A DNA stretch of 64,000 nucleotides from Candidatus Spongiisociaceae bacterium. Lineage in GTDB: Bacteria > Actinomycetota > Acidimicrobiia > Spongiisociales > Spongiisociaceae. The number at the start of each line of letters is the position of its first letter. Within the stretch, counting starts at the first letter, position 1. Under the pieces are notes generated by a model that had not been told where the DNA came from, ran no database searches, and saw nothing but the letters and a program-made list of their open reading frames with translations. Where the stretch lies: contig OZ253564.1 of the NCBI GenBank assembly GCA_965262915.1, positions 2,624,001 through 2,688,000 of the forward strand, given 5' to 3'. Shown one piece after another: positions 77-39,566 of this stretch. The position numbers and the translations under genes were made by a program.

Positions 77-124
77 CGGTCGATCAGGAGCGGGTCGCCA
101 CACCCGCTCCTGGGGGCCCCAGGA

Positions 125-673
125 TCATGCTCCGGTCACCCAACTCTCCACCATCCGGTGCTGCGCCCCCGTCTGGGGCGTTGGCTTGTAGCCGCCCTTG
201 CGATCGCCCCGACGGCGAAGCGTGCGGAGCAGATCGATCACCTCATCCGGCGAGGCGTAGCCGTGTCTCCGGAGCCAGCAGCCCACCACCGTACCGGTCC
301 GCCCGCTTCCGCCCCAGCAATGCACGTAGACGTTGCACCCATGAGCGAGGTGGCGGTCGATCACGTCGAGGGTGGTAACCATCTCGGTCTCGGTCGTCAC
401 TCCGTTGTCCTCTATCTGGCGGCGTACCACGACCGCGTGACGATCGGTCGCGCGGATGTCGTAGCGGTCCATGTGTGCGTCGGTTCCGCCCGGATAGTCC
501 TGGGTCAGGTTGACGAACACGTTGATGTCGGCGTCCAGCAACTGGCCCGCCTTGTCGTTCCACGGAGCAGGGTTGGGATAGGCGCCCGCCGCCAAGCGTT
601 CGGGAATCACCCAGTAGGACCGATCGGTCGGGCCGCTCTCCGCGCTGCGCGCCAACGCGAGGTCCATGAACAT
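125..673 (-). CDS. protein-tyrosine/dual-specificity phosphatase family protein
   Basis: HCWGGSGRTG (CX5R) P-loop; C-terminal PQT..Q motif. Confidence 0.85.
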   Translation of the reverse strand: MFMDLALARSAESGPTDRSYWVIPERLAAGAYPNPAPWNDKAGQLLDADINVFVNLTQDYPGGTDAHMDRYDIRATDRHAVVVRRQIEDNGVTTETEMVTTLDVIDRHLAHGCNVYVHCWGGSGRTGTVVGCWLRRHGYASPDEVIDLLRTLRRRGDRKGGYKPTPQTGAQHRMVESWVTGA

Positions 674-713
674 CGTCCTCTGCCTCCATTCCGGCTGCCG
701 GTACGTTGCCAGG

Positions 714-1750
714 CTAGATGAGTAGTTCCAAGGGGTGTGGGTGGATAATCCACCGTTTTGGGGGTGGGGGTGTCCAGAATCCGGGGTGAAAAAACTTCCC
801 CGATCCCGGAGGACCTGGTATGAACCCGGACCTGGACACCCTCGCTACCACAGTATATGTGACGGTTGATGATCTGTTGATCCAGCATCCCGAGTGGGTG
901 CCCCAGCGACCCGCGGTGGGGATCGCTCCCAAGCTGTCCGACGCCGAGTTGGTCACCCTGGCGGTGATCCAGTCGCTGCTCAGATACACTTCCGAGGCCC
1001 GTTTCTTGCGCTACGCGCACGCCCATCTCAAACCATGGTTCCCGTATCTGCCTACCCGATCCGCCTACAACAGGCGGCTACGCCGCCTCGGCCTCACGAT
1101 GCAACACATCATCGCCTGGCTGGCCCGGGACTGCCCGTCGTGGCATGACGACCTGTGGTTGGTGGACTCCACGCCCGTCGAGTGCGGACGCAGCCGCACA
1201 ACCCAACAACGCTCTGACCTGGGGGGATGGGCCGAATACGGCTACTGCGCCTCCCACTCCCGCTACTTCTGGGGGCTGCGCTTCCACCTGGTGGCCACCC
1301 CATCGGGACTGCCGATAGCCTTCGCGTTGGCGCCGGCCAAAGCGGACGAACGCGACATCGCCACAGAAATGATCGCCCACGCCCGCCTAGCCCGAGCGGG
1401 CCAAACTCTCATGGCGGACAAAGGATACCGAAGCGCCAGCTTCGAGGAAGACCTCAACGAGGCCCACATGACCCTCATCCGCCCCGCCACAAAAACAGAA
1501 GCGCCCAGAAGCGGCCAGCGGTTCCTCCGACCCTTCCGCCACATCATCGAATCGATCTTCCAAACCTTCAAGGGCCAACTCGATCTCGAACGTCACGGCG
1601 GACGCACCAAACCGGGTGTTGTGGCACGTGTCCTCCAACCGATACTCGCCCTCACCACCGTCATCTGGCACAACGAAACCACCTAACGACCAGGCCCAGC
1701 ACGCTCCCTCATCGCATATGACCACTAAAACCTTGGAACTAACCATCTAG
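714..1750 (+). mobile_element. IS982-family insertion sequence
   Basis: Terminal inverted repeats CTAGATGAGTAGTTCCAAGG (714-733) vs revcomp of 1731-1750 CTAGATGGTTAGTTCCAAGG (18/20); CTAG at both ends; encloses a DDE transposase. Confidence 0.9.
820..1686 (+). CDS. IS982-family DDE transposase, slightly truncated by a premature TAA
   Basis: DLDTLAT..YV..DDLL start, VDSTP, ADKGY, R..IES motifs; frame continues after TAA as RPGPARSLIAYDH* to 1728. Confidence 0.88.
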   Translation: MNPDLDTLATTVYVTVDDLLIQHPEWVPQRPAVGIAPKLSDAELVTLAVIQSLLRYTSEARFLRYAHAHLKPWFPYLPTRSAYNRRLRRLGLTMQHIIAWLARDCPSWHDDLWLVDSTPVECGRSRTTQQRSDLGGWAEYGYCASHSRYFWGLRFHLVATPSGLPIAFALAPAKADERDIATEMIAHARLARAGQTLMADKGYRSASFEEDLNEAHMTLIRPATKTEAPRSGQRFLRPFRHIIESIFQTFKGQLDLERHGGRTKPGVVARVLQPILALTTVIWHNETT

Positions 1751-4563
1751 AGGACATCGCGGAGGAACTTGCCGGTGTAGGACTGCGGAACCTGCGCCAC
1801 CTGTTCGGGTGTTCCGATCGCGACTATGCGGCCTCCCTCGTCACCGCCTTCGGGTCCCATGTCGATGATCCAGTCGGCCGAGCGCACCACGTCGAGGTTG
1901 TGCTCGATGATGACCACGGTGTTGCCGCCGTCGACCAGGCGATGGAGGACCTCCAAGAGCTTGCGGGTGTCCTCGAAGTGGAGGCCGGTGGTGGGTTCGT
2001 CGAGGATGTACAGCGTGTTGCCCGTGGATCGTTTTCCCAGTTCGGATGAGAGTTTGACCCGCTGCGCCTCGCCGCCGGAGAGGGTGGGGGCCGGCTGGCC
2101 GAGGCGGATGTACCCGAGTCCCACGTCGTAGATGGTCTGGAGGATGCGGGCAATGGGCGGCTGCGCCTCGAAGAAGACCAAGGCCTCCGCAACGGACATG
2201 TCGAGTATGTCGGCGATCGATCGTCCCTTCCATCGCACCTCGAGCGTATCCCGGTTGTAGCGACGACCTTCGCATACTTCGCAGGGGACGTAGACATCGG
2301 GAAGGAAGTGCATCTCGATCTTGATGTTCCCGTCGCCCTTGCAGGCTTCGCAGCGGCCGCCGCGGACATTGAAGGAGAAGCGCCCCGGTAGGTAACCGCG
2401 GGCTCTGGACTCCGGAGTGGAGGCGAACAGCTTCCTGATCCGGTCGAACAGCTTCGTGTATGTGGCGGCATTCGACCGGGGAGTCCGACCGATCGGCGAC
2501 TGGTCGATATTGATCACCTTGTCCAGGTGCTCGGCGCCTTCGATACGGCGGTGATGCCCCGGGACCGCCCGCGAGCGGTACAGCCTGTGGTGGAGGGCCT
2601 TCGACAGGATCTCCTGCACCAGGGACGACTTGCCGCTCCCCGACACCCCGGTGACCGCGATGAACATGCCCAGCGGGAACTCGACATCGATCTGGCAGAG
2701 GTTGTTCGCGGCTGCGCCCACCACGGTCATTATGCGGCCGTCTCCCGGCCGGCGCCGGTCCGGTGTAGGGATCCTGCGGCGGCCGGCCAGGTAGTCGCCG
2801 GTGAAGGAGGTGGGTTCGGCGATGATCTCGGCAACACCTCCTTCCGCCACCACATGACCGCCTTGCTCGCCCGCCCCCGGTCCGAGATCCACGATGTAGT
2901 CCGCGGTACGGATGGTCTCCTCGTCGTGCTCGACCACGATCAGGGTGTTACCCAGATCCCGGAGGCGGAGCAGGGTCTCGAGGAGGCGGCGGTTGTCCCT
3001 CTGGTGCAGGCCGATCGACGGCTCGTCGAGCACGTACAGCACCCCGACCAGGCCCGAGCCGATCTGGGTGGCCAGACGGATTCGCTGGGCCTCTCCCCCC
3101 GACAGGGTGGCCGCTCCCCTGTACAGGGTCAGGTACTCGAGGCCCACATCGAGGAGGAACTGCAGCCGGGCCCGGATCTCCTTGAGCACCGGCGCCGCGA
3201 TCGTGGCATCCCGCCGGCCCATCTCAAGGGTGTCCAGGCTGTCGAGCGTGCCCCGGATGGAACGGCTGCACAACTCGAAGATGTTGAACTCCCCGACGGT
3301 CACCGACAGCGATACCGGATTCAGCCGCGCTCCCCCGCAGGTCGGGCACGGGATCTCCCGCATGTACTCCTCGTAGTAGCGCCGGGCCGATTCCGACTCG
3401 GTCTGGTCGTGGCGACGGCGCAGGACCCGGATCACCCCCTCGTAGGTCGCTTGGTACTGCCGCCTCCTGCCGAAACGGTTGGTGAACGACACCTGGATGG
3501 ACAGGTCCCCGGTCCCGTACAGCACCGCCCGGCGATGGTCCTCGGCCAGAGTGAAGAACGGTGCGTTCACATCGAAGCCGAGCTCGTTCGCCAGCCCTGC
3601 CAACAGGTGGTGGAAGTAACGGTTCCGGTTGCTCGACCAGGGGGCGACCGCGCCGGCGGCTATCGAGAGCTCGTCGTCGGGGATCACCAGCAGCGGATCG
3701 ACCTCGAACGTGGTGCCGATTCCCGAGCACGCCTTGCACGCTCCGTAGGGGCTGTTGAACGAGAAGGAGCGCGGCTCCAGCTCATCGAACGAGAGGCCGC
3801 ATTCGTTGCATGCCAGGTGCTGGCTGAAGGTCAGCTCGGGACCATCGATGATGTCCACCACCGCGATACCGCCGGTGAGGCCCAGTGCGGTCTCGAGCGA
3901 CTCGGTGAGCCGGCGGATGCCACCCCTACCGGCGACCAAGCGATCGACCACCACCTCGATGGTGTGGGTGTAGTAACGGTCGAGACGTATGCGGTCTGCC
4001 AGGTACATGATCTCGCCGTCCACCCTGGCCCGGCTGAAACCCTGGCGCGAGAGGTCCCGGAACAGTTCCTCGTACTCGCCCTTGCGTCCCCGGATCAGGG
4101 GAGCCAGCACCTGGAACCGGGTCCCCTCCTCCAACTCGGCGATCTGGTCGACGATCTGCTGGGGTGTCTGGCGCGCCACCATCCGCCCGCATTCGGGGCA
4201 GTGGGGCCGGCCGATGCGGGCGTAGAGCAGGCGCAGGTAGTCGTGGATCTCGGTGATGGTGCCGACTGTGGAGCGGGGGTTGCGGCTGGCCGTCTTCTGA
4301 TCGATGGAGATGGCGGGCGACAGCCCTTCGATGAAGTCCACATCGGGCTTGTGCATCTGGCCGAGAAACTGGCGGGCGTAGGCCGACAGGCTCTCCACGT
4401 ACCGGCGTTGCCCCTCCGCGTATATGGTGTCGAATGCGAGGCTGGACTTCCCGGAGCCGGACAGTCCGGTGAACACGATCAACCGGTCACGCGGGAGCTC
4501 GATGGAAATGTCCGCCAGGTTGTGCTCGCGCGCTCCGCGAACGGCCAGCTTGTCTCTCGTCAT
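1747..4563 (-). CDS. uvrA: excinuclease ABC subunit A
   Basis: Two ABC ATPase modules ([26 protein letters not shown] x2), CxxC zinc fingers; start at [16 protein letters not shown]. Confidence 0.98.
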
Positions 4564-4703
4564 AGTGCCCGGGTGTGTTGCTGTACGGGGAAGCAGGGGT
4601 GGTGGCACCATGGTAGTGGCGGTCGGCAGTTGCCAGTAGCCCGGTCACCCCGAGTCCCGACTTGCGGAAGCCGGATACGGGCTACCTGTACCATCGCCTG
4701 CTC

Positions 4704-7700
4704 ATGAGTCGGTTACCCGAGTACGTGGTCTTCGACCTGGAGACGAACGCCGACCGACCTGATCGGGCCGAGCACGAGATCATCCAGATCGGCGCCGTAG
4801 CCGCAGTCGGGAACGGCGAGGTGGATACGTTCGAGGCTCTGGTCCGGCCCCGGCGACCGCTGCCCGCCCGGATCACCGAGCTGACCGGGCTGGTGTACGG
4901 CGATCTGGCGGGCGCGCCGCCTCTCGGGCGCGTCCTGGGCGAGTTCTTCGAATGGCTCGGCGACCGGCCCCTGATCGCCCACAACGGGTTCGGCTACGAC
5001 TTCGTGGTTCTCGACGCTGCCGCGGCCGCGGAGGGGATCGTCGTGCCGGCCGGGGACCGGCTCGACACCTTGGAGTTGGCTCACCTCGTTCACCCCCGGG
5101 CCGGGTCCGGTATCCGCAGCGTGGACGGTGCCTCTCCTCCACCCGGACGCAGCCTCGACCACCTGGCGGCGGCCTACGATCTGGCCGGCCGGGACCGCCA
5201 CGACGCTCTGGTCGATTCCCGGATGACCCGGGCTGTCATGCTGGGCCTGCTCGAGGAACTGGATCGGGATTCGCCGGTGCGCCGCTTGCAGCGGTGGATC
5301 CTCGGCGTGTCCGCTCATCCGTGGGCGGGATTCGTGCAGCCGCAGTCCCGACCGCCGCCGCTCGCCGACGTGGTCCCCTCGGTTCCCGTTCCCGGACCGA
5401 TCGTCCCGACCGGCCGGTTCGACGCGGCTGCGATCGTGAGGGCATTCCGGTCGGGTGGTCGGTTGATGACCGGTGGCCGGACGCCCCGCGCCCAGCAGGC
5501 CGAGATGGCGATATCGGTGTGCAGAGCCTTCACCACCCGCGGTGGGCGTCGGATGATCGAAGCTCCCACCGGGACCGGCAAGACGCTGGCCTACCTGGTT
5601 CCCGCCATCGAGATGGCTCGGGCTTCGGGCCGCACCGCGGTGGTCACCCCACACTCGCGGGTACTGCAGGACCAGATCCTGACCACTCTGGAGCAACTCG
5701 AAACCGAGATCGGGCCCTTCACGAAGGTGGTGCTCAAGGGCAGGCAGAACTACATCAGCCTCAAGTCTCTCGATGCGGAACTCACCGGGATGGAGGAGGA
5801 ATCGGATCGCAGCCCGGTCCGCCATCCCACCGCCATGGCTCTGGCCATCCTGTGCGGATGGGTGGCCGAGACGCCCAGCGGCGACTGGGCGGACCTGCGA
5901 ACGAGGGCGCTGGAGGATCACCTGACTCCTCTGAGGTTCCTGCGGTGGAGGTTGCGAGTCGATACCCGGCCCGGGCCGGTGCGGGACCGCCTCGATGCGC
6001 TCGACTTCTACCGCCGCGCCTCGGGAACTCTGAGGACCGCCCACGTGGCCGTGCTGAACCATGCCCTCCTCGCCACGGGTCCGGAACTGGGGGAGGGATC
6101 CTTCAACCTGATCGTGGACGAGGCCCACGGGTTGGAGGACTCGGTCACCTCTGCGGCGACCCTCCAGGTGGAGGGAGAGCACCTAGAGAGGATATGCGAC
6201 GCTCTATGGGACCCGGAGACACGACGGGGTTTGGCGACGAGGCTGGCGGTTGCCATCGGGGTGGGTCTCCGGGACCGCAGGATCGATCGGATCCGCCGCG
6301 CCGGCGTCGAGGCCCGAGCGGCAATCAGGCGTTTCTCGGCGCCCCTGACGGAGTACGTGCGCGACCGGACCGGCGTGAGGCGGGAGGAAGCGGCGCGCTA
6401 CGGCTCCTCCTACCGGATCCGCCGGGGGGTCGACACCTACCACCCCTCGTACCGGACCGTTCTCGAAGCAGGCCGAGCCATGAGGCGCGCCCTCCGCGAG
6501 GTGACCGAGGCCCTTGACGCCATCAGCGTGCCGGAGCAACTCCACGGCCGGTACCGCCGCGACGCTCTGGAGGATGAATTGGCCCGGTTCGGCCGGGAGA
6601 TCTCCGACGCGGCCCTGCTGGTCCACTCCGTGCTCTCAGCCGCGGCCGACATGCGTCTCTTCGACGACGACCTGAGCGATCACCACTTGATCGACTGGAT
6701 CAACATCGCCGAGGTCTCCTTCGAAACGTTCGGGAGGGGACGCGACGGATTCGAGGCCGTTGGCGGGACCGCCGCGGAGGCCGGCCGCAGCGGGCAGGGA
6801 GAGTGGCGCTGGGCGCTACGGCGGGCTCCGCTGTCGGTGGCGGGCCTGCTGTCCGAACTGTGGGAAAGGAGCCACTCGGTGCTGCTCACCTCGGCCACGC
6901 TTCGGGCCGGTGACGACTTCGGTTACCTGGTCGGCCGCCTGGGACTCGGCTCGGTCGAGTCGAAGGTGATCGACACGCCGTTCGGGAATCTGCCCGAGAA
7001 CCATCTCCTCCTGCTGACCGACTACCTGCCCGCGCCACGGGGGCAGCTCATGGATCGGTTCACCGAGACCGAGGCCACCGAGATACCCAGGCTGTGCGTG
7101 GCGAGCGACGGCGGGGCACTTGTGCTCATGACGGCCCGGGCCCGGCTGGACTACGTGCGGGATCACGCCCGTGCCCATCTGGGGCCTCTCGAACTGGAGC
7201 TCATGGCCCAGGGAGACGGACCGTCGCCGGCTCTCGTGGAGCGGATGCGAAACGATCGGGACTCCTGCCTGCTCGGACTGCGGTCGTTCTGGGAGGGGAT
7301 CGATATCCCCGGCGACGCCCTGAGGTTGCTGGTGGTGGAGAAGGTTCCGTTCGATTCGATCGGCGATCCGGTGGTGGGTGCTCGCAGCGATCTGATCGAG
7401 ATGAGGGGACGGGACCCGTTTGCCGACTACATGGTCCCGCGGGCTGCCATCGCCTTCGCCCAAGGGGTGGGACGCCTGATCCGCACTGCCGACGACAAAG
7501 GCGTCACCGTCGTGCTGGACAGCCGCCTGCGCCGCCCCATCCCCTACCGCGACGTGCTGCTGCGCGGCCTGACCGGACCCCCATCCAAGCGGGAGATCGA
7601 CACTCCCGAGGCTGCCTACGACGCCATCACGGATCACCTGGGTCTCGACCTCGACCGGGTCCGGTGGGAGAGGATCCGCCGGATACCCGGGATCGAGACG

Positions 7701-9842
7701 TTGTCGCAGGCGGCCCTCGAGGTCGGTGACGATGGTTCCCCCGACCGCCCGGCCATCGCCCGGCGCTTGGAGAGGGCCCGGGAGTGGCTCGGTTTCGAGG
7801 AGTGGAGGCCGGGCCAGCACGAGGTGATGACCCGGTTCATGCGGGGCGAGGACGTGGTGGCGGTGCTGCCCACCGGGTTCGGCAAGTCGGTCACGTACCA
7901 GGTTCCGGCGCTGGTATCCCCCGGCGTGACGATGGTGGTGTCGCCGCTCATCGCCCTCATGCGGGATCAGGTCGACAACCTGCGGGCCCGAGGGGTCACC
8001 GAAGCGGCGGCCATCTACTCCGGAGTAGGCCAGGCGGAGCAGCAGGCGATCCTTGCCGGCGCGGCCGCCGGCCACATCAAGCTGTTGTACGTCAGCCCGG
8101 AGCGACTGTGGTCACCGGTGTTCCGCACCTGGTTGAAGGAGGTCGACGTGGCGCGGGTGGCGGTGGACGAGGCCCACTGCATCTCCCTGTGGGGCCACTC
8201 GTTCCGGCCGGAGTACGCCATGATCCCCCGTGCGGTTGCCGAGGTGACCGGCGCGAGGCTTCCCACCCTGGCGGTGACGGCCACCGCCACGAGCGAGGTT
8301 CTCGAGGACATCGCCGCCCTGCTCGACCTGCGGCCGTCGGGCCGACCGCTGGTCGGATCGGTCAACCGGCCCGAGATCCGCTACTACCTGGAGCGCTGCC
8401 GGAACCGCAAGGACCGTGATCTGCGCGTCATCCAGGTGGTGGAGGCCTTCCGCCGGCGGAGCGCCATCGTCTACGTGCCGACCCGCAGGGACACGACCCG
8501 CCTCTCCGGCCTGTTGCGCACCTTCGGCAACCGGGTGCGGCCCTACAACGGCGCTATGTGCTACACCGAGCGCCAGCACACCGAGGATGCGTTCCGCCAC
8601 GGCGAGATCGATGTGGTGGTGGCCACCAAGGCCTTCGGTCTGGGTATCGACAAACCGGACATCGCCCTGATCGTGCATCTGGAGATGCCCGCCTCCATCG
8701 AGGAGTACGTCCAGGAGACGGGACGGGTGGCCCGCGGTGCCCGCGACGGTACCGGACCGGACATCGGAACCGCCGTGCTGCTGGTGACTCCCAACGACTG
8801 CGGCATCCACGAGTTCTTCGCGCGCTCGGCGGTTCCCGAACTCGAGGACATCGAGCGAGAGTTGGCTCCGCTGGCGGTGGGGATGAACTACATCGACCCT
8901 GCCCGGCTCAGCCGCCGTCCCGGTACGGAGGACGCGGAGCCCGACCAGCTCCGGGTCCTGGCGCTGCACTATCTGGACCGGGTGGGGGTCCTGCGCCGGC
9001 ACCGAGACTTCGTGCTGCGGGGCCGCGTCGCGCCGGTGGAGGACACCGGGCGGCGCCTCGCGGATCTGCGGACCCGCGATCCCGAGTCGGCTCGGAAAGC
9101 CGACGATGTCCTACGCATCGTGGAAAGAGAGGGAGGCGAGTACCGCGGTCTCGACTGGAGTTCACGTCTCGGTATGTCGCCCGGCGAGATCGAGGCTGTC
9201 CTGTTCGACATGCAGAAACGTGACATCTGCTGGTTCAGTAGCTGGAAGTACGGGTGGGTCTTCGAGAGGATCGAGGGGGTCCGGCCCGACCGGCGCCATC
9301 TCGACCGCTTGATCCGGCGTCGCCGACGGTCGGTCGAGGACCGCGCCCGCCGGGCGCGGCGCCTGGCTCATGGGCGTCCCGACTGCCGTCGCCGGGAGAT
9401 GCTGCGGTACCTGGGCGAGTCCGATCCCTTCGAACGCGGCTACTCCTGCGGGGGTTGTGACGCCTGCACCCCGGAACTTCCCCGTCCCTGGGCGGGGACC
9501 GGGATCGGTGTCGAGCAGATGCGGGAGGCCGTCCACGAAGGAGCCGACGCCATCATCCTGGTGTTGATCGACGATGTCGAAGGTGGCCGGTGGTCGAGGC
9601 GCAACCTGGTGCGGACGCTGCGTGGGGAGGGCGGCGGTCTCCATCCCCTGCCCGAGCGCCTCCGGTTGCACAGCTGTTTCGACCGGCTGGGGCTGCTCGA
9701 CCCCGAAGAGGTGGAAGGGATGATCGACGGGATGATCAGGGACGGCTACCTCGAGGAGGTCCGGCCCGGGGGCCGGACCTACAAGACGCTCCGGCTCACC
9801 GATGACGGTCGTAGCCTCCTCCGGGGCCGCTACTCCCGGTAG
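4704..9842 (+). CDS. fusion protein: DEDDh 3'-5' exonuclease + DinG-family helicase + RecQ-family helicase with Zn-binding and RQC-like domain
   Basis: Exonuclease: FDLET, AHNGFGYD, HDALVD. DinG: EAPTGTGKT, KGRQNY, NHALL, DEAH, TSATL, FWEGID, QGVGRLIR. RecQ: LPTGFGKS, SPLIALMRDQV, DEAHCIS.WGHSFRPEY, QETGR, CRR..CGGCDAC. Confidence 0.9.
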   Translation: MSRLPEYVVFDLETNADRPDRAEHEIIQIGAVAAVGNGEVDTFEALVRPRRPLPARITELTGLVYGDLAGAPPLGRVLGEFFEWLGDRPLIAHNGFGYDFVVLDAAAAAEGIVVPAGDRLDTLELAHLVHPRAGSGIRSVDGASPPPGRSLDHLAAAYDLAGRDRHDALVDSRMTRAVMLGLLEELDRDSPVRRLQRWILGVSAHPWAGFVQPQSRPPPLADVVPSVPVPGPIVPTGRFDAAAIVRAFRSGGRLMTGGRTPRAQQAEMAISVCRAFTTRGGRRMIEAPTGTGKTLAYLVPAIEMARASGRTAVVTPHSRVLQDQILTTLEQLETEIGPFTKVVLKGRQNYISLKSLDAELTGMEEESDRSPVRHPTAMALAILCGWVAETPSGDWADLRTRALEDHLTPLRFLRWRLRVDTRPGPVRDRLDALDFYRRASGTLRTAHVAVLNHALLATGPELGEGSFNLIVDEAHGLEDSVTSAATLQVEGEHLERICDALWDPETRRGLATRLAVAIGVGLRDRRIDRIRRAGVEARAAIRRFSAPLTEYVRDRTGVRREEAARYGSSYRIRRGVDTYHPSYRTVLEAGRAMRRALREVTEALDAISVPEQLHGRYRRDALEDELARFGREISDAALLVHSVLSAAADMRLFDDDLSDHHLIDWINIAEVSFETFGRGRDGFEAVGGTAAEAGRSGQGEWRWALRRAPLSVAGLLSELWERSHSVLLTSATLRAGDDFGYLVGRLGLGSVESKVIDTPFGNLPENHLLLLTDYLPAPRGQLMDRFTETEATEIPRLCVASDGGALVLMTARARLDYVRDHARAHLGPLELELMAQGDGPSPALVERMRNDRDSCLLGLRSFWEGIDIPGDALRLLVVEKVPFDSIGDPVVGARSDLIEMRGRDPFADYMVPRAAIAFAQGVGRLIRTADDKGVTVVLDSRLRRPIPYRDVLLRGLTGPPSKREIDTPEAAYDAITDHLGLDLDRVRWERIRRIPGIETLSQAALEVGDDGSPDRPAIARRLERAREWLGFEEWRPGQHEVMTRFMRGEDVVAVLPTGFGKSVTYQVPALVSPGVTMVVSPLIALMRDQVDNLRARGVTEAAAIYSGVGQAEQQAILAGAAAGHIKLLYVSPERLWSPVFRTWLKEVDVARVAVDEAHCISLWGHSFRPEYAMIPRAVAEVTGARLPTLAVTATATSEVLEDIAALLDLRPSGRPLVGSVNRPEIRYYLERCRNRKDRDLRVIQVVEAFRRRSAIVYVPTRRDTTRLSGLLRTFGNRVRPYNGAMCYTERQHTEDAFRHGEIDVVVATKAFGLGIDKPDIALIVHLEMPASIEEYVQETGRVARGARDGTGPDIGTAVLLVTPNDCGIHEFFARSAVPELEDIERELAPLAVGMNYIDPARLSRRPGTEDAEPDQLRVLALHYLDRVGVLRRHRDFVLRGRVAPVEDTGRRLADLRTRDPESARKADDVLRIVEREGGEYRGLDWSSRLGMSPGEIEAVLFDMQKRDICWFSSWKYGWVFERIEGVRPDRRHLDRLIRRRRRSVEDRARRARRLAHGRPDCRRREMLRYLGESDPFERGYSCGGCDACTPELPRPWAGTGIGVEQMREAVHEGADAIILVLIDDVEGGRWSRRNLVRTLRGEGGGLHPLPERLRLHSCFDRLGLLDPEEVEGMIDGMIRDGYLEEVRPGGRTYKTLRLTDDGRSLLRGRYSR

Positions 9843-9855
9843 GAGCCGCCGCCTG

Positions 9856-10023
9856 TAGTGGTCTGTCTGCAAAACAACTTGCCGTGCTCTGGCAGCCATC
9901 GACGCCCCTCGCTGTGTTCCGCCTCCTCGATGTACCGCTGCGGGTACGCCTTCGTCGGCGGGCCTTGGGAGGAACGCCGCTGCCGGCGCATACCACCCCG
10001 CCGTCTCACGGACAGACCAGTAG
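9856..10023. mobile_element. MITE-like repeat, family A, copy 1 (168 bp)
   Basis: Terminal inverted repeats TAGTGGTCTGTCTG...CGGACAGACCAGTA; near-identical copy at 24995-25162; internal hairpin GTACC-GCTGCG-GGTAC. Confidence 0.85.
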
Positions 10024-10036
10024 TATTCGCAGGTCG

Positions 10037-11845
10037 ATGGCGTTCCTGACACCCGAGAACATCCCCAGCCGTTCCGGCGTGCCGGACCGGCTCCGACAGG
10101 TGGCACGGGCCTTGCGGGACTTCATGCCCTACGAGACGACGGTCTGGCTGGCGGAGAAGGAGGGGGGCGCCCCCTACCTGGAGGTGCTCGACCCCGCGGC
10201 GGGGATTGTCGTGATCGAGGCCCCGCCCATAAGGGTGGGTGGACGCCGGCGCCGCCGCCCGTGGCGCGCCTTCAGCGAGCAGGACATGGTCCGTATCCGG
10301 GATGACATGGCCGAGCGCGCCGAGGATCTGCGGAAGCGCATCGACCGGGCGCTGGTGAGGTCGCTACCCGTGAGGTGTGTCCTGGCTGCTCCGGACCATG
10401 ACGAGGTGCCTGTGAGCGCCCTCGATTCGGTGCAGGGCGATCTGCCGCTACTCACCCGGTCCGACATGACCGGGTCCCGTCTCCGGCCTGCCATCGGCCG
10501 CATCCTCGGCAGCCTGACGATGACCCCGCTGACCGAGCAGGAGGAGAACCGGGCCCGGGCGGTTATCAACCCCGAGATCGTTCTCGGCGCGACCGAGGGC
10601 TACGAGACCCTTCCACTGTTCCAGGATCCCGACATCGCGCCCGGGGACATCATCCGGGTGATGGACCGCGAACAGGAACGGGTGGCGGAGCATCTCGGGT
10701 GGGGGTACAGGATGTTGCGCGGCGTGGCAGGCAGCGGCAAGACGCTGGTGCTCACGCACCGGGTCCGCCATCTCCACCGGCTCTTCCCGAACTGGCGGAT
10801 CCTGTTGTTGTGTTACAACCGGTTGCTGGCGAACGCGCTGCAGATGATGGTGGACGAGAGCGACCGCGTGGATGTCACCAACATCGACCGCCTGGCCTAC
10901 CGGCTGGCCGGGCAGGAGAGCGGCCGTGGCCGGCCCGATTTCGAAGAGTTGAGAAAGCGGGCGGCGGTCAAGGCAGGCCGGCTGCCGGACTCCCGGCGCT
11001 ACGACGTGGTGCTGGTCGACGAGGCTCAGGATTTCGGCCGCCAAGGTCTCGAGCTCGCCTACGCGATGTTGAAGCCGTCGCGCCGGGATCTCGGTGCGGC
11101 CGGGCGTAACCTGCGGTCGTACCGGGCCGGACACTTCGTGATGGCCCTGGACAGCGCCCAGAACGTCTACAGGCGGAGCATGACGTGGAACCCCCCGGGA
11201 CTCACGGCTCGGGGACGCACGACGGTCTTCCGGCGCAACTACCGCAACACCCGGGAGATCCTGGAGCTCGCCTGGACCTTTCTCGAAGGATCGCCCGACC
11301 GCTCGCCGCCGGTCTCCGATGGGGGTGACTCCAAGGACCGTATCGAGCCGGAGGCGGCCCCCAGAAGCGGTCCGGTACCCCGACTGCTCGACTGCCGGGA
11401 CCTGCGGGGCGAGGCCGAAGCCATCGCCGCCGAGATCGGGCGCCTCACCACCGACGGAGTGGATGTCGGCGACATCGCCGTCATGTACGGCCACCGCGAG
11501 CTCGAGACGGAGCTGCAGAAGGCCTTCCGTCAGCGCCGTCTCCCCTACTTCCACATCCAGTACCAGGACCGTCGCGGCCGGAGGCCCAACCGGGACATAG
11601 CCATGGGTGTCCGGGACAAGGTGCGGGTCTCGACGCTCCAAGGTCTCAAGGGTCTCGAGTTCAGCCGGGTGTTCATCGGTGGGGTCAACCAGGCGTACGT
11701 CCACGACGTCGCCGAGGAGGACCAGCCGGTCGCCGTCAAGCAGCTTCTCTACGTGGCCATGACCAGGGCCATGGACAGACTCGTCATCACGATCTCGGGT
11801 GATGGGGAGTCGGGCCGGGCGCTCCGGAACGCCCAGTCGGGGTAG
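10037..11845 (+). CDS. SF1 (UvrD/Rep-like) helicase with degenerate N-terminal NERD-like domain
   Basis: GVAGSGKT, LVDEAQD, RNYRNT, KGLEF, LYVAMTRA; IIRVMDREQERVAEHLGWG typical of NERD-UvrD proteins. Confidence 0.85.
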   Translation: MAFLTPENIPSRSGVPDRLRQVARALRDFMPYETTVWLAEKEGGAPYLEVLDPAAGIVVIEAPPIRVGGRRRRRPWRAFSEQDMVRIRDDMAERAEDLRKRIDRALVRSLPVRCVLAAPDHDEVPVSALDSVQGDLPLLTRSDMTGSRLRPAIGRILGSLTMTPLTEQEENRARAVINPEIVLGATEGYETLPLFQDPDIAPGDIIRVMDREQERVAEHLGWGYRMLRGVAGSGKTLVLTHRVRHLHRLFPNWRILLLCYNRLLANALQMMVDESDRVDVTNIDRLAYRLAGQESGRGRPDFEELRKRAAVKAGRLPDSRRYDVVLVDEAQDFGRQGLELAYAMLKPSRRDLGAAGRNLRSYRAGHFVMALDSAQNVYRRSMTWNPPGLTARGRTTVFRRNYRNTREILELAWTFLEGSPDRSPPVSDGGDSKDRIEPEAAPRSGPVPRLLDCRDLRGEAEAIAAEIGRLTTDGVDVGDIAVMYGHRELETELQKAFRQRRLPYFHIQYQDRRGRRPNRDIAMGVRDKVRVSTLQGLKGLEFSRVFIGGVNQAYVHDVAEEDQPVAVKQLLYVAMTRAMDRLVITISGDGESGRALRNAQSG

Positions 11846-11929
11846 TGGTTGCTGGCTCGACTGCCGGGTTGGTGACATCGGCCTTCCCGGCTTGCAATTC
11901 TGTCAATAGTGGCTTATGTGAGATTGTGG

Positions 11930-11944
11930 TATACTGCGTGTATG
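11930..11944 (+). promoter_or_regulatory. -10 element of a probable leaderless TA operon promoter
   Basis: TATACT 6 nt before ATG at 11942, no Shine-Dalgarno. Confidence 0.55.
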
Positions 11945-12295
11945 GATAACTCGTCAAGTCTCGCTGCAACCCGCGCTCCGCCGGAGCGACCCAGCGAGCG
12001 GCCTCCGACTGATGATCGGGCCCCGGTAGATGCCGCGGAGGTCGCTGGAGGTGAGGACCGGGAGAGACCATTCCTCGTTATCGACATGTCCAAGATGGAT
12101 CCTGATATCAGGGCGTCGATCGTGGACGACTGCACGCCCCCGGAGGAGACACCCCAAGAGCGGGCGGAGCGCCTCGATCGGTGCAAGGCCGCCACCGCCG
12201 AGTACGACGCCGAGTTCGGTCCCCTGAAGCCCGAGGAGAAGGCTTGGGCGGACTCCGTCTTGGACGGGAGTGGCGACTGGATGGACGAGCCGTGA
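11942..12295 (+). CDS. putative antitoxin
   Basis: Acidic small protein, C-terminal AEYDAEFGPLKPEEKAWADSVL; GTGA overlap with the downstream PIN gene. Confidence 0.6.
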   Translation: MDNSSSLAATRAPPERPSERPPTDDRAPVDAAEVAGGEDRERPFLVIDMSKMDPDIRASIVDDCTPPEETPQERAERLDRCKAATAEYDAEFGPLKPEEKAWADSVLDGSGDWMDEP

Positions 12296-12672
12296 CATCG
12301 GGGATCACTTACGACACGGGCGCGCTGATCGCGGCCGAGCGAAAAGAGAAACGCGTCTGGCGGTTTCACAGGCGCCTGGTGGATCGGGGCATCGAACCGA
12401 CGGTACCCGCCGGTGTGCTCGCCCAGGCATGGCGGGGTGGATCCCGACAGTACTGGTTGACCAGGTTCCTTTCCGATTGCCGGATCGAAGCGCTGGACGA
12501 GTCCCTGGCTCGTGAGATAGGCGTCATCTGCCACCAGCACGGGGTGACCGACGTCGTGGACACATCCGTGGTGGCCGGCGCATCCCGCCGAGGGGATCAG
12601 GTCGTCACGCGTGACCGCCCGGATGTGGTCTCTCTCGCCAGGTCGATGGGAGTCTCGGTAAGTTACGGGTGA
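12292..12672 (+). CDS. PIN-domain (VapC-like) ribonuclease toxin
   Basis: YDTGALIAAER, VPAGVLAQAWR, DVVDTSVV, VVTRD motifs. Confidence 0.8.
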   Translation: MTSGITYDTGALIAAERKEKRVWRFHRRLVDRGIEPTVPAGVLAQAWRGGSRQYWLTRFLSDCRIEALDESLAREIGVICHQHGVTDVVDTSVVAGASRRGDQVVTRDRPDVVSLARSMGVSVSYG

Positions 12673-12932
12673 ACAATGGGCTGACCGGCGCGGCAAAACG
12701 GCCCACGCGGCTGCATTCCGAAGCGAGTGTTGATCAGAATCACCGTAGGCAGGCCTTCCATATCCCAGCCTGCCACCGCCACGATATCTTGTCTTCCATG
12801 GGTACCTTCTGTATCCACCCTGATGTTTGCGCGAAGCACTCGCTCGATGTCCTCTTCGGTTCTGTGTCTCAGGGTGGCGGGATGAGTATCCAGATATTGC
12901 CCTTGGAACCGGATAGGCAGGTAAAGCCCCGT

Positions 12933-13232
12933 TCAGGCACTTGCAACAGGCAACAGCGCTTCGATCCCGGACCGAACCTCCGGAGGCAGGCGAGACAGAA
13001 GAGACTCCTTATCGGGCCCTACTGCCATGGTGAGTATGTCAGCCGCCTCCTCCATTCCGACCTCGAGCAGATGGCTAACCTGCCGGTCGGTCTCCCACCG
13101 GGCGAAAATACCGAACGCCCATTCCCTTACCTGTTCCTCCAACTCAGGCCCGGCGGGAGTTCCCTTCCACCCCAGCCGCTGGTGAGGATCATCCAAGATC
13201 GCCACCATCTCATCAATACTCATATCTCTCAT
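12933..13232 (-). CDS. hypothetical protein
   Basis: 99-aa ORF MRDMSIDEMVAILDD..., protein-like composition; no family recognised. Confidence 0.45.
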   Translation of the reverse strand: MRDMSIDEMVAILDDPHQRLGWKGTPAGPELEEQVREWAFGIFARWETDRQVSHLLEVGMEEAADILTMAVGPDKESLLSRLPPEVRSGIEALLPVASA

Positions 13233-13423
13233 ACTCACGAGTCCACTTTCGTAGCCGCTCGTCCGGAGCGGAGGGTCGAAGGGCCGCGCCTGTCGTACAG
13301 CCCTTCCCGTGCCGGCACGGTTTTCTTGTCTCGACCGGATAGCCGAGTGACCGGTCGCGCGCCGGTGCGCCTCGGATCCGCCCCCGATCGGGATGGATCC
13401 CGCCGTGGATGCGGCGCAGGCTG

Positions 13424-13927
13424 ATGTCACCACGGCGGTGGTTGGTCGGGGTCGCCCTGGTCGTGGCCGGCTGTGCAACGTCGCTGCTCCCGAGTGACAC
13501 TTCCTCGGCCGACCCGACTACTCCCGGGCCGCTTCCGGCGACCGGCGCCGGGATGTCCGGAACGGGCCCGGCCTGGCCCGACTTCCGGTCGGCGGTAGAC
13601 GCTGTCGAGACCGAACTTGCTCGGCTCGGATACGAGAACCTCGGAGGCGATCACCCGGGTCCGACTTCCGTCGCCTTCCTGGTGGTCGGCTCGGACGGCG
13701 CGCCCGAGGTGGAGGTCGCGCTGGGTTGGTCCCAAGCTGCTCCCATGGGAGCCTTCAGCACCATCGTCAACACCGTCTCCGGGATGGACGGGATTCAGCG
13801 CGGGCCGGGCCGAGGCGGAGTGTGGTTCCTGTGCGGTCCGCTCTATGTCGAGATGCTCGCCGGGGACCTGCCGGACGCCGCGAGTCTCGCCGACCGGCTG
13901 ATAGACGAGATCTGCCGGCATGCCTGA
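13424..13927 (+). CDS. putative lipoprotein
   Basis: RRWLVGVALVVAG-C signal peptide and lipobox followed by a Pro/Thr linker. Confidence 0.6.
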   Translation: MSPRRWLVGVALVVAGCATSLLPSDTSSADPTTPGPLPATGAGMSGTGPAWPDFRSAVDAVETELARLGYENLGGDHPGPTSVAFLVVGSDGAPEVEVALGWSQAAPMGAFSTIVNTVSGMDGIQRGPGRGGVWFLCGPLYVEMLAGDLPDAASLADRLIDEICRHA

Positions 13928-14054
13928 CCGCCACCGGTCGTCATCGGACGCGGCGCCGGAACGGATGGAGACGCCCCGGCGGGAGACCGACGCGGCGTCG
14001 GCCATGGTCGTGAAGGCTGTCCGGGTAGGGAGGAGAGTCCGGGGAAATCCACCA

Positions 14055-14081
14055 GCGGCCTGTCGCTTGGCAACAGGCCGC
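14055..14081. terminator. GC-rich hairpin between convergent genes
   Basis: GCGGCCTGT...ACAGGCCGC 9-bp perfect stem; no U-tract. Confidence 0.4.
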
Positions 14082-14153
14082 CAGACAATCCGGCGAGGGA
14101 CTCGTGGCAATCGCCGTTGTCGAGCACCCTCCTGGCTGTCAGCTGGGCTGGAA

Positions 14154-14921
14154 TCAGCTGGGCTCGAAGATGGTGAAGGTTCCCTTCTGATCGTCGTTCA
14201 CCACCGCGAAGCGGCCGACCATGATGTCGGTCACCGGAACGCAGACATCCCCGCCCAGACTGGTCACCTTGGCGGCCGTCGCATCGGCGTCCTCCACCTG
14301 GATGTAGACCATCCAGTGGGGCGGTATCTCGCCCCAGTTCTCGTCCATCTCCAGCACCCCGCATACCAGGAAATCGCCGACGGAGGCTAGGTGGTAGTTG
14401 CCGCCCTGAGGCATCGGCATGCTGGTCCACTCCCAACCGAACAGGCTGGTGTAGAAGCTCTTGGTGGACTCCAGGTCACGGCTGTAGAGCTCGTTCCAGG
14501 CCAGGGCGCCGGGGCTGCGGATGATCTCCGCCCCACCGAATTCGAGGGCCTGCCAGAGGAACACCGAAGCGCCGCCCGGGTCCTGCATCAACGCGACCCG
14601 CCCGTTTCCCACATCGGCGGGTCCCATCATGAACGTCGCACCCAGACTCCTCGCCCGCTCCGCGGTCGCGTCCAGGTCGTCGGTGGCGACGTAGGAGAAC
14701 CAGTGTGGCGGGACCCCTTCAGGCAGCATCCCCGGCATTGCCGGTCCGAGAGCCCCGACGCTTTTTCCGTCCAGGTTGAACATGGTGTACGACATTCCCG
14801 AATCGCCCATGGGTACATCCGTCCAGTCCCAACCGAAGAGGTTGCCGTAGAAGGCCTTACCCCGATCCTGGTCAGGCAGGTAGATGTCCATCCAACAGAA
14901 AGTGCCCTGTGGGTGCTTCAC
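14154..14921 (-). CDS. VOC/glyoxalase family protein (two-domain, CFP32-like)
   Basis: GTFCWMD...FYGNLFGW and duplicated ALAWNEL...FYTSLFGW; RBS AAGGAG before GTG. Confidence 0.9.
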   Translation of the reverse strand: MKHPQGTFCWMDIYLPDQDRGKAFYGNLFGWDWTDVPMGDSGMSYTMFNLDGKSVGALGPAMPGMLPEGVPPHWFSYVATDDLDATAERARSLGATFMMGPADVGNGRVALMQDPGGASVFLWQALEFGGAEIIRSPGALAWNELYSRDLESTKSFYTSLFGWEWTSMPMPQGGNYHLASVGDFLVCGVLEMDENWGEIPPHWMVYIQVEDADATAAKVTSLGGDVCVPVTDIMVGRFAVVNDDQKGTFTIFEPS

Positions 14922-15117
14922 GCTTGCTCCTTGTCATTCGAGGATCACTGGAACTCCGGCGGTGAGAGGACCGGTCCAGATGGTGATCCTAGGAGAATCC
15001 GATGGTTGTGCGGCCAACACGCCGAACGCCTCGGGTTCGGTTCGGCCACTCTCGCGAACTACCGGAGCGGAGGTTGCAGTGCATGGACAGATCTTGCCCG
15101 AGCGACTCCGGCTGCCT

Positions 15118-15354
15118 TCACTCCTCGGTCGTCACCGGGACGCCGACGAAATCCCCCCGATGAGCCCAGAGACCCTGGCCCGGGTTGGAGACGAAGTAGA
15201 TCCTCTCACCGTCCACATCGTTCCAGCCCTCCACAGTTGGCGCCAGATCCACAGCGTCGAGCAGAAAGTTGTCGGGATGGATCACCTCGATGCTGTACGG
15301 CGCGAGGCTGAAAAGACGGGTAATTGGTTGGCCCTCCGTCCGCTGACGTGGCAT
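15118..15354 (-). pseudogene. chimeric remnant containing a PIN-protein C-terminal fragment
   Basis: LAPYSIEVIHPDNFLLDAVDLAP resembles the C-terminal motif of PIN_3-type proteins; flanks unrelated. Confidence 0.4.
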
Positions 15355-15433
15355 TTTGTCATCGACCGTCGGGCCAACGGGGGGTTTCTCAGCCCTCTTC
15401 TAGGTGCGGGTCGAGCCTTGAGGGCCGGCTCGG

Positions 15434-16348
15434 TCAGCGCCGCGCCTCGAGTTCGGCCTTCACCTGCGCGGCCGCTTTCATGTCCGAGACCCTGACCACT
15501 ATCGAACCGATTCCAAGTGCCGCCAGACGCTCGAACCCGGCTACCACCTCCGGTAGCGTGCCGACCTGGAGGAAGGGCGACTCCCGGACCTGGTCCGGGC
15601 CGACACCATGGTCGGCGGCCACGGACTCCACCAGTTGCCTCGATCGGCTCCCCACCGCGACGCGGTACAGCAGCACGTCGATGAGCGCGTTCCTGGTGCT
15701 CTCCGCCCGAGCGGTGCGGACCTTGCCCGACACTTCGTCGAATGTGGTCGAGGCGGCCACCGCCGGCATGTCGGCCCGTTTCCCGCTCGCGAGCGAGATG
15801 CCGATCGACACCACGTCGGCCACCTCGGCGGCGACCCGGAGAATCCTGGGGCCCCCACCTCCCACGATGATGGGAGGGTGGGGCTGCTGCACCGGTCGGG
15901 TCATCGGATCGAGGCGTGCCCGGTACCACCGCCCTTCGTGGTCCACCTCGCCGTCGGTCCAGCACCGGCGGATCAGGTGCACGGCCTCTGCCAGCCTCGA
16001 GATGCGGTCGGCGGGCCGGTCCATGCTCAGGCCCACCGCCCGGTAGTCGGCGGGCCACCAGCCGGCGCCGATCCCCAGCTCGACCCGGCCCTCGGAGAGT
16101 ACGTCCAGGGCCGCGAAATCTCTGGCCACCATGGCCGGGTGACGAAGATCGTTGGCCAGCATGTATGCGCCCACGCGGAGGGACGTGGCCGCCGCGACCG
16201 CGGCCAGGGTGGGCACGGGGGAGATCACCTCGTTGAAGTGGTCGGGGACGTAGAAGACGTCGAATCCCAACGATTCCGCCCGCCTGGCCACCTCGATCAC
16301 GGGCCCTTCCCCCACGGGAGGCGCGAACAGCACGCCGAACCTGGGCAT
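15434..16348 (-). CDS. LLM-class (probably F420-dependent) oxidoreductase
   Basis: AESLGFD..YVPDH, RHPAMVARDFAALDVLSEGRVELGIGAGW, PPIIVGGGG; start could be 16390. Confidence 0.88.
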   Translation of the reverse strand: MPRFGVLFAPPVGEGPVIEVARRAESLGFDVFYVPDHFNEVISPVPTLAAVAAATSLRVGAYMLANDLRHPAMVARDFAALDVLSEGRVELGIGAGWWPADYRAVGLSMDRPADRISRLAEAVHLIRRCWTDGEVDHEGRWYRARLDPMTRPVQQPHPPIIVGGGGPRILRVAAEVADVVSIGISLASGKRADMPAVAASTTFDEVSGKVRTARAESTRNALIDVLLYRVAVGSRSRQLVESVAADHGVGPDQVRESPFLQVGTLPEVVAGFERLAALGIGSIVVRVSDMKAAAQVKAELEARR

Positions 16349-16373
16349 CGGCGCTCGGCGGGACGGAACCACG

Positions 16374-16838
16374 CTACGGTCCGGCGCCATGCGAGGACGG
16401 GCCCAGGCCTCGACCGATTGCCCGGGACGCGGCGCGGGCGGTGGCCACGACCCTCGTAGCGACGCTCTCCTCGATCAGCCCCGCGGAGGGCAGGGTGGCT
16501 GAGACGGCGCCGACCAGTGCGCCGCCCAGGCCGAAGACGGGTGCCGCGACGCTCGCCCACCCGAGCACGCACTCCTCCCTCTCGGCGCCCCAACCGCGCC
16601 GGCGTATCTGATCGAACTGTTCCAAGAGCACGGAAGGTACCACGATGGTGTAGGGGGTCACGCTTTCTAGCTCTCGCCCTGCCATGTCCCGGGCGACATC
16701 GGGAGGTGAGAAGGCCACCAGCACCTTGCCGGTGGCGGTGACGGTGCCGCACAGAGGCAGCCGGCCCGCCAGGCGGCTGCCCAGCTCGAACAGCTTCAGG
16801 CCCAGACGGTATCTCCGGCCCTCCCGCTCGATCAGCCC
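16374..16838 (-). pseudogene. IclR-family regulator remnant (no start, internal deletion)
   Basis: GLIEREGRRYRLGLKLFELGS joined directly to RLPLCGTVTATGKVLVAF...EECVLGWASVAAPV. Confidence 0.75.
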
Positions 16839-17160: not shown

Positions 17161-17201
17161 GGATGCGGATTCTCTTCGAGAGCCGGCGACCGTACATGTC
17201 G

Positions 17202-25162: not shown

Positions 25163-25266
25163 CATCGCGGGCAGTTGTCCTTTGCTTACCCGCCGGTCGC
25201 GGCGAACGACGTGTCCGGCCTACGCGCAGGAACCTGTACCCCCACGATCCGGCGGTTATCAAGTTC

Positions 25267-37922: not shown

Positions 37923-37944
37923 TCCCCCAGGCTAGCCAAGTGAG

Positions 37945-39543: not shown

Positions 39544-39566
39544 CGTGGTTGGTGGTGCGCGGTTCA

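Follow-up and report, generated by a model that had tools for sequence, protein, structure and literature searches.

In the genome of Candidatus Spongiisociaceae bacterium (5.05 Mb in a single contig, ~67% G+C), we analysed a stretch of 64,000 nucleotides (positions 2624001-2688000, hereafter the window) and two adjacent helicase genes in it, HelA and HelB, these names being labels coined in this analysis. HelA is a single-chain fusion of three modules (DEDDh exonuclease, DinG-type helicase and RecQ-type helicase), and HelB joins a NERD-like domain to a UvrD-type helicase. Comparison with related genomes strongly supports the view that the two genes form one self-contained cassette, inherited together and transferred now and then. 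As for its role, the explanation that we favour, which we consider only a little short of probable, is an accessory role outside core repair, in which HelA-HelB would attack or restrict mobile DNA that is foreign or replicating, such as that of phages and plasmids or DNA taken up by transformation. The named relatives of the source organism are sponge-associated Acidimicrobiia ('Candidatus Poriferisodalis/Poriferisocius'), and the family name Poriferisodalaceae is used in a published paper.

Domain content of HelA and HelB

The two proteins and their parts are as follows.

HelA, 4704-9842, plus strand: 1712 aa; DEDDh exonuclease, DinG-type helicase and RecQ-type helicase
HelA aa 1-195: DEDDh exonuclease (Pfam RNase_T at residues 22-192, 8.1e-20)
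HelA aa 260-960: DinG-type superfamily 2 (SF2) helicase without Fe-S cysteines (Pfam Helicase_C_2 at 810-959)
HelA aa 1020-1390: RecQ-type helicase core (Pfam DEAD and Helicase_C at 1049-1358)
HelA, between the RecQ core and the RecQ zinc-binding module: insert of 150 aa
HelA aa 1543-1603: RecQ zinc-binding module (Pfam RecQ_Zn_bind)
HelA aa 1606-1712: C-terminal domain, guessed to be winged-helix-like, without a domain assignment
HelB, 10037-11845, plus strand: 602 aa (Pfam UvrD_C, UvrD-helicase and AAA_19)
HelB aa 1-120: NERD-like domain, followed by a linker
HelB aa 206-602: compact UvrD-type superfamily 1 (SF1) core

The translation of HelA shows every one of the expected motifs (DEDDh, Walker A, DEAH and the zinc cysteines). 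The exonuclease residues D11, E13, D99, H166 and D171 are invariant in 27/27 aligned homologues, and so are Walker A, DEAH and the four zinc cysteines. Between the Walker A and DEAH motifs of the DinG module there is only one cysteine, and HelA therefore lacks a DinG-type Fe-S cluster. The best NCBIfam match of residues 1-960 is exonuclease-DinG, with scores under the cut-offs of both models concerned (NF005981, 369 vs 789; TIGR01407, 327.5 vs 547.7). HelA likewise stays under the cut-off of the RecQ equivalog model TIGR01389 (356.1 bits vs 640.2) and is thus not a canonical RecQ; it passes that of the RecQ subfamily model TIGR00614 (289.7 vs 219.8), and the Pfam search lists no HRDC match for it. 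Like the exonuclease-DinG proteins of Firmicutes (S. aureus PDB 8zef/9ii8; B. subtilis DinG), HelA has an N-terminal DEDDh 3'-5' exonuclease and a DinG core without the four Fe-S cysteines, but it additionally contains a whole RecQ helicase. Eukaryotic WRN, too, combines a 3'-5' exonuclease of the DEDD type with a RecQ helicase in a single polypeptide, and its helicase core matches HelA 1026-1349 (~3e-45). Unlike HelA-HelB, it lacks both a DinG module and a partner of the UvrD type, and its likeness to HelA is one of convergent architecture, not of orthology.

In the helicase half of HelB, the UvrD_C (67.8 bits) and UvrD-helicase (26.1 bits) matches are both above cut-offs, 28 aligned homologues show no variation in Walker A or the DEAQD motif, and both Foldseek and PDB profile searches match the core to UvrD, PcrA and Rep. 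Against the equivalog models of these three proteins HelB reaches only 43-50 bits where the cut-offs exceed 900, which does not amount to orthology. The PADLOC model C3a187 'NERD+UvrD' matches at 3.5e-44 with the alignment confined to residues 165-595, and Pfam NERD (PF08378) finds no match in HelB. Nevertheless we regard the N-terminal domain as NERD-like, because HelB aligns end to end with NERD-bearing proteins of other phyla, namely Rokubacteria proteins (locus L046) with Pfam NERD PF08378 (3.8e-12). The topology predicted for this domain (helix, three strands, helix, strand) resembles that of restriction-endonuclease-like folds. The fold predicted for the isolated domain has a pLDDT of 63.7, and its structure search gave a best Z of only 6.6, with weak matches to HamA, SdaI, TnsA, Hjc and Can2 amid unrelated rows.

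The Rokubacteria homologues have an intact D...E-x-K motif (E-V-K); in HelB, Tyr replaces the catalytic Asp and E-A-P stands where E-x-K would be, and the Glu itself varies among HelB homologues. Judged by these residues, the NERD-like nuclease site is catalytically dead. In conservation the domain equals the helicase core (70-76% and 76% identity to the closest orthologues, respectively), which argues that it has been retained for a non-catalytic role. The first-pass annotation had counted three helicase motors and one active nuclease in the two proteins, and the intact DEDDh residues of HelA together with the lost NERD site of HelB, both read from sequence, agree with this count.

HelA and HelB as a co-inherited unit

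Our relative set comprised 41 genomes, i.e., our own and 40 relatives, most of which are metagenome-assembled genomes (MAGs) and which, being kin, are not independent; two of them (G028 and G039) were counted only in the HelB, HelA, AdnAB and DinG tallies. HelB is present in 18 of the 41, namely in our own genome and in 17 of the 24 from the same family, and in none of the 16 that represent eleven other families of the order. The genomes with a full-length HelA are precisely these 18, so that each genome has both genes or none. The first-pass annotation had proposed a dedicated two-gene system and held that a failure of the homologues to co-occur would speak against it; co-occurrence proved to be strict throughout the set, and HelA lies directly upstream on the same strand for all 21 HelB copies of the 18 genomes. 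The same arrangement is seen in the species-representative collection at 12/12 Acidimicrobiia loci with a HelB of at least 40% identity (two of these duplicate G017 and G018, and 10 are additional). In all but 3 of the 30 distinct pairs (27 of 30) the genes are separated by 0-98 bp, with stop and start codons abutting in several, which bears out the suggestion of an ancestral operon. The HelA and HelB trees have supported clades in common, and the pairwise identities of the two proteins give a correlation of r=0.97 across 300 pairs from 25 loci, which are not independent of one another. HelA and HelB have thus been gained, lost and have diverged together. One of the two genes is interrupted in 5 of 31 pairs (HelB in G004 and G013, and HelA in G001-C133, L035 and L037), which may reflect decay or assembly error; as the relatives are mostly metagenome-assembled, frameshifts may be errors. 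Structure prediction of a complex between HelA 1380-1712 (333 of its 1712 residues) and full HelB scored 0.00 in each of two runs, made without controls.

In the window the two genes stand further apart, with a spacer of 194 bp (9843-10036) that is largely filled by a repeat resembling a miniature inverted-repeat transposable element (MITE).

9856-10022: MITE-like repeat of 167 bp, non-coding, with 12-nt inverted ends (11/12 complementary)

The genome contains at least 42 other near-full-length copies of this repeat at 85-94% identity, a count made from 40 scored of 136 candidates. It is missing from the orthologous HelA-HelB spacers of G001, G002 and G007 and is a later insertion. Taking the 167 bp out leaves a spacer of 27 bp, within the gap of ~26-30 bp expected earlier; in G001 the orthologous genes are 26 bp apart, and other relatives have 24-98 bp there. 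In short-read contigs from 4 sequencing runs, near-identical copies bridge HelB, the toxin-antitoxin islet described below and the DNA beyond it, but the contigs end at the MITE. Among 15 of 91 contig joints listed, none skipped the cassette. A further copy of the MITE lies in the window at 24997-25165, between polA and lepA, and tandem or adjacent copies are found at G000:C1:2947885-2948213 and 567185-567513.

Upstream of HelA, one promoter element can be proposed.

4689-4694, plus strand: candidate -10 hexamer TACCAT (TANNNT type), ending 9 nt ahead of the HelA ATG

If used, this hexamer would make the HelA mRNA leaderless or near-leaderless. An ACCTGTA-NN-(A/C)TCGCC block is kept in 4/4 aligned uvrA-HelA spacers. 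A consensus scan of 4400-12800 for promoters and terminators gave nothing above chance, and no TGTC/GACA-type RecA-NDp motif was seen in 4612-4703 by eye, which is not a formal scan. The uvrA-HelA spacer of G002 (L014:6164-6474) contains ~25 copies of the heptamer GGTGAAT, none of which occur in the window or in G001. Perfect LexA boxes (CGAAC-N4-GTTCG) are present in the window only at 37945, upstream of dnaE2, and at 41712, upstream of the imuB operon. With these two detected as controls, the GAAC-N4-GTTC core was absent from the 400 bp upstream of HelA at all 30 loci examined (28 distinct), which extends to the relatives the early remark that no LexA box precedes HelA and HelB. Within the dnaE2-imuB region (34578-41725), a DUF4143/AAA_14 ATPase gene (38095-39543) lies between dnaE2 and the imuB-like gene on the opposite strand; DUF4143 genes also flank the HelAB pairs of L035 and L039.

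Mobility, loss and genomic position

Our genome has a second, divergent HelA'-HelB' pair with ~50% identity to the pair in the window.

G000:C1:2020991-2027792 (= L013:8971-15808), minus strand: second pair, between rseP and ispG, in a 7.4-kb insertion
L013:8419-8925 and L013:16323-16829: direct repeats of the second pair, 507 bp with 99% identity, duplicating the 3' end of rseP

The corresponding site is empty in 5/5 same-genus genomes, and no integrase was found near the second pair among the scanned ORFs (open reading frames). The insertion looks like a recent single-crossover integration. Its closest relatives are copies in other MAGs (66% identity for HelA and 60% for HelB), compared with 52% and 48% for the second copies of the same genus. 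These same-genus second copies occupy other sites, beside HipA and, in G001, GmrSD.

Loss is visible as well. In G020 (genus g7), 400 bp separate the flanking DEAD-box and SDR genes, and similarity to G021 sets in again with the last 36 bp of HelB; this remnant of HelB marks a deletion scar. On a wider scale, fusions of the HelA type were found in one other family among 300 sampled genomes of the class (G217, 34% identity) and in 0/400 sampled genomes of the phylum.

The position next to uvrA is shared with our genome only by G001, G002 and G007. In G019 and G022 uvrB directly neighbours uvrA, with no gene in the interval, and in G005 and G006 >1 Mb separates the two. Any special tie of the pair to uvrA/uvrB thus falls away, and the apparent link to nucleotide excision repair is accidental.

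The toxin-antitoxin islet and the uvrA-uvrB interval

As the first-pass annotation described it, the interval between uvrA and uvrB holds four plus-strand genes, HelA, HelB, an antitoxin candidate and a PIN gene, and both the coordinates and the Pfam calls confirm this layout. The surrounding features are listed below.

1747-4611, minus strand: uvrA (Pfam UvrA_inter, UvrA_DNA-bind and ABC_tran), divergent from HelA across a 92-bp spacer
11846-14153: genome-specific islet of ~2.3 kb, outside the cassette, with no counterpart in G001, G002 and G007
11942-12295, plus strand: antitoxin candidate, 117 aa, no family match
12292-12672, plus strand: VapC-like PIN toxin candidate, 126 aa
12669-13424 and 13409-13927, plus strand: two ORFs in the islet (12669-13927) with no Pfam, NCBIfam or meaningful PADLOC match
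17202-19214, minus strand: uvrB (Pfam UvrB_inter, UvrB and UVR)

The PIN gene matches Pfam PIN at E=5e-4 with 21.1 bits, below the cut-off of 23.6; its start overlaps the antitoxin stop (GTGA), and this overlap and the small sizes fit the VapBC type. The pair had been taken for part of a four-gene module, in which it would be a functional component of the helicase system. It does lie on the same strand directly downstream of HelB, and unrelated toxin-antitoxin pairs also stand immediately behind HelB in L018 (MazF) and L044 (FitA/PIN). However, the pairs elsewhere belong to different families and are on the opposite strand, neither gene of the window's pair has a homologue in 19 relative loci, and G001, G002 and G007, the closest relatives, pass directly from HelB to a glyoxalase gene ~40-110 bp further on. 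The G+C content of the islet (0.63-0.64) is also lower than that of the helicase genes (0.68-0.70). Since it has no relatives at these loci and its islet is specific to this genome, we place the toxin-antitoxin pair outside the module, as another later insertion, and consider a role for it in the helicase system highly improbable.

An insertion sequence transposase gene (DDE_Tnp_1, 820-1686) sits between a phosphatase gene (125-673) and uvrA, which are ~35-190 bp apart in G001, G002 and G007. Between a luciferase-like gene and uvrB there are fragments of IclR (C-terminal part) and MoCoBD_2 (16374-16724 and 16832-17197), which look like rearrangement remnants in the uvrA-uvrB interval.

Related fusions and known systems

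The architecture of HelA is not new. A DnaQ-DinG-RecQ fusion of Thermus thermophilus HB27 was pointed out as early as 2005 (Omelchenko et al. 2005, BMC Evol Biol 5:57, PMC1274311), and the gene is given there as present in HB27 and absent in HB8. A 2026 Tn-seq paper has it as a dispensable 'shell' recQ on pTT27. The HB27 fusion is an accessory, strain-variable gene, like HelA. Our literature search found no functional, biochemical or genetic study of the DinG-RecQ fusion or NERD-UvrD protein families. The HB27 protein (TT_RS10770 / WP_011174436, 1649 aa) has the same collinear order as HelA (DEDDh, DinG, RecQ, zinc module and C-terminal domain). Its BLASTP segments against HelA cover residues 8-510 (28% identity, E 2e-26), 703-1368 (33%, 4e-75) and, at the C-terminus, 1582-1707 (26%, 1e-5). 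Collinear HelA homologues of 1649-1759 aa are found on megaplasmids of Thermus, Meiothermus and Deinococcus, and a search with the DinG-RecQ junction returned, by hand count, ~71 proteins of at least 1500 aa spanning the junction among the best 150 clusters at 50% identity.

The partners of these fusions differ. Those of Thermus and Meiothermus are plasmid-borne and are followed by three small proteins instead of a NERD-UvrD helicase. In HB27 (L094:7096-14962) and Meiothermus taiwanensis (L096:7120-15103), the same three genes (~270, 178 and 512 aa) follow the fusion, the first two products having only sub-threshold coiled-coil-type Pfam matches and the third being without a family, and together they form a conserved four-gene operon on megaplasmids. 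Cmr genes lie ~7 kb from the HB27 fusion. On a Deinococcus actinosclerus plasmid, a PcrA/UvrD-type helicase is encoded directly upstream of the fusion, and an 886-aa protein is also a partner. A UvrD-domain gene on pTT27 was considered as a relative of HelB and rejected, as only motifs are shared; the VapC gene beside it is unrelated to the PIN gene of the window.

In G217 the fusion (1759 aa) belongs to an operon of overlapping genes (L093 = G217:C36:205500-225400, genes 39-19107) that runs from a 751-aa weak REase_III protein through a type III methyltransferase (PADLOC 7.7e-273) and two small ORFs to the fusion and a 2624-aa SNF2/DrmD/BrxHI-like helicase. This operon is a candidate composite restriction/DISARM-like system, and we know of no earlier description of an operon of its type.

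Further combinations of such modules were found closer to home. In another Acidimicrobiales MAG (L043:6968-10800), a BrxHI/SngC-like SF2 helicase (681 aa, 1.1e-132) shares 13 bp of its gene with the beginning of the gene for a NERD+UvrD protein (599 aa) whose NERD motif, E-I-L, is dead as well; the two make up another kind of 'SF2 helicase + NERD-UvrD' pair, besides that of the window. Our own genome encodes a 1787-aa single-chain RecQ-UvrD fusion (L092:5650-11013, minus strand; G000:C1:4727649-4733012), which unites in one chain the RecQ and UvrD motors that are split over HelA and HelB. Unlike these, it is without a DinG module and a NERD-like domain; its N-terminal 300 residues have no Pfam match, and the HelB UvrD core does not match it at E<=0.001. 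The gene lies beside a DUF4143 ATPase gene and a DUF222/HNH gene. Exonuclease, RecQ and UvrD modules thus meet as an operon in the window, as a fusion beside a UvrD/PcrA-type helicase on the Deinococcus plasmid and as a RecQ-UvrD chain in our genome, and such repeated meeting in independent ways points to functional coupling.

HelB itself belongs to a widespread, patchy NERD+UvrD architecture. NERD plus an SF1 helicase is the layout that it shares with the NERD+UvrD proteins (PADLOC C3a187, Shah et al. 2019) and with Nhi. Among the NERD+UvrD proteins it aligns end to end with that of L043 (34%); unlike the Rokubacteria members, it has lost the Asp and Lys of the NERD site. Nhi depends on an active nuclease. 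GajB of Gabija is a distant SF1 relative that gives only weak partial matches to HelB, and no GajA-like protein is found among the neighbours. The NERD+UvrD architecture appears in the literature, for three loci, as a candidate type III CRISPR accessory. Partner genes of Dpd, type IV CRISPR (Csf4) and PsyrTA are absent among the window neighbours, and the HelA matches to these systems are single-domain only.

The varied company of the fusions also bears on whether HelA and HelB work jointly at all. They could be two independent helicases on one transcript, or selfish cargo that aids its own spread or maintenance (e.g., by recombination or integration). The different partners elsewhere would fit this, as would the second copy between 507-bp direct repeats, as after single-crossover integration, with no integrase nearby. 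Against it, the 31 pairs show strict co-occurrence, co-divergence and frequent abutment of start and stop, and RecQ and UvrD modules are fused in the single 1787-aa chain. In addition, HelB has 0 matches in 50,697 phage records, where the full HelA fusion is also absent and only RecQ-only partial matches occur. We therefore consider the absence of a joint machine unlikely.

Possible functions of the HelA-HelB cassette

We infer that HelA and HelB would act as one DNA-processing machine, physically associated in a complex. DinG-type helicases move 5'-3', and RecQ-type and UvrD-type helicases 3'-5'. Going by these family names, the two motors of HelA would have opposite polarity and could pull both strands of a DNA end or fork, in the manner of RecB and RecD within RecBCD, and the DEDDh domain would break down the 3' strand. 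HelB would contribute a further 3'-5' motor, and its dead NERD fold may bind DNA or its partner, HelA. The likeness to RecBCD, AddAB and AdnAB, in which several motors (of opposite polarities in RecBCD) and a nuclease act on DNA ends, is a works-like analogy only, and Pfam finds no RecB-family nuclease (PF12705, PD-(D/E)xK) in HelA or HelB. A more specific form of the defence explanation, to which we give tentative credence, is an unrecognised stand-alone anti-mobile-DNA system, in which a three-motor bipolar helicase-exonuclease would shred the ends or forks of invading DNA. It would stand within a wider group of fusions with varied partners, i.e., NERD-UvrD here, a methylase and SNF2 helicase in G217, a PcrA/UvrD-type helicase and the 886-aa protein in Deinococcus, and three small proteins in Thermaceae.

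Several observations make us lean towards defence. The cassette is patchy, occurs as several divergent copies per genus, has been freshly inserted in one place and cleanly lost in another, and may be decayed in some genomes. A homologue sits in the restriction-modification/DISARM-like operon of G217, other fusions ride on megaplasmids, and the HelB family is listed as a candidate accessory of type III CRISPR. HelA lacks a LexA box at the 30 loci, whereas the dnaE2 and imuB operons have perfect ones. Finally, the host group, sponge-symbiont Acidimicrobiia, is reported to be enriched in defence systems.

A number of findings weigh against a defence role. No known defence system was matched as a whole by PADLOC among the window proteins, the matches being at domain level only (DpdF, type IV DinG, PsyrT and GajB). 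Gene-neighbourhood analysis, which had been proposed as a check on a defence or repair module, upheld co-occurrence and patchy distribution. As for proximity to defence genes, most of the 147 neighbouring proteins at 27 loci are metabolic or unknown, a recognised restriction gene is present at only 1 of the 27 (GmrSD_N, L030), and toxin-antitoxin genes flank 5 and transposases 4. Every domain of HelA and HelB comes from a classical repair-helicase family, and the pair has neither a methylase nor any other self/non-self module with it. In type-1 pairs, two SDR genes and an amidohydrolase gene downstream are conserved across two genera, which looks like vertical inheritance.

The last point against defence concerns DinG, and it leads to the main competing explanation, an accessory genome-maintenance machine. 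Such a machine would deal with problems of the cell's own DNA (R-loops, replication-transcription conflicts, gaps and stalled forks), replacing standalone DinG and combining DinG, RecQ and UvrD activities. DinG, Rep and UvrD activities cooperate in E. coli. In 18/18 HelA-bearing genomes the sole DinG-type domain is the one inside HelA and no standalone DinG is present, whereas, among the 7 family genomes that lack HelA, 4 have a standalone DinG (frames of 669-698 aa) and 3 have neither gene. This complementarity is weak evidence for repair: the independent events behind it are very few and come from a few genera, and DinG is also missing in 11/16 genomes of neighbouring families. The domains are closest to the Bacillus/Staphylococcus-type exonuclease-DinG and to RecQ, the neighbours are mostly housekeeping genes with an occasional Tag (L022 and L041), Ogt (L023), NucS (L027) or PafC/WYL regulator (L042), and the pair is divergent from uvrA in four genomes. 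The Deinococcus plasmid pairs its fusion with a PcrA/UvrD-type helicase, Thermus papers list the fusion as recQ among repair genes, and B. subtilis DinG is reported to mitigate replication stress.

A maintenance machine would be hard to reconcile with a pair that is missing from 7 of 24 family genomes, from all 16 genomes of the order's other families and from the phylum sample, with one other family in the class sample, and of which one genus can hold several divergent copies, each at its own site and one of them freshly inserted. The lack of a LexA box upstream of HelA points the same way. Moreover, AdnAB-like pairs are present in 41/41 genomes regardless of HelAB status and a canonical RecQ is also present, so there is no pathway gap to fill. 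A replacement of AdnAB/RecBCD by HelAB was likewise rejected, as PF12705 pairs occur in all 41 genomes, including the 18 with HelAB. On balance, genome maintenance is a possibility that we take seriously and consider rather less than probable.

If defence is the role of HelA-HelB, it would be a system built wholly from repair-type helicases, without a dedicated toxin or sensor, and it would supply a function for a fusion that has been unexplained in T. thermophilus HB27 since 2005. If repair is, this lineage would have replaced standalone DinG with a DinG-RecQ-UvrD super-helicase. T. thermophilus HB27 is a genetically tractable carrier of a related fusion, which makes a test of function practical.

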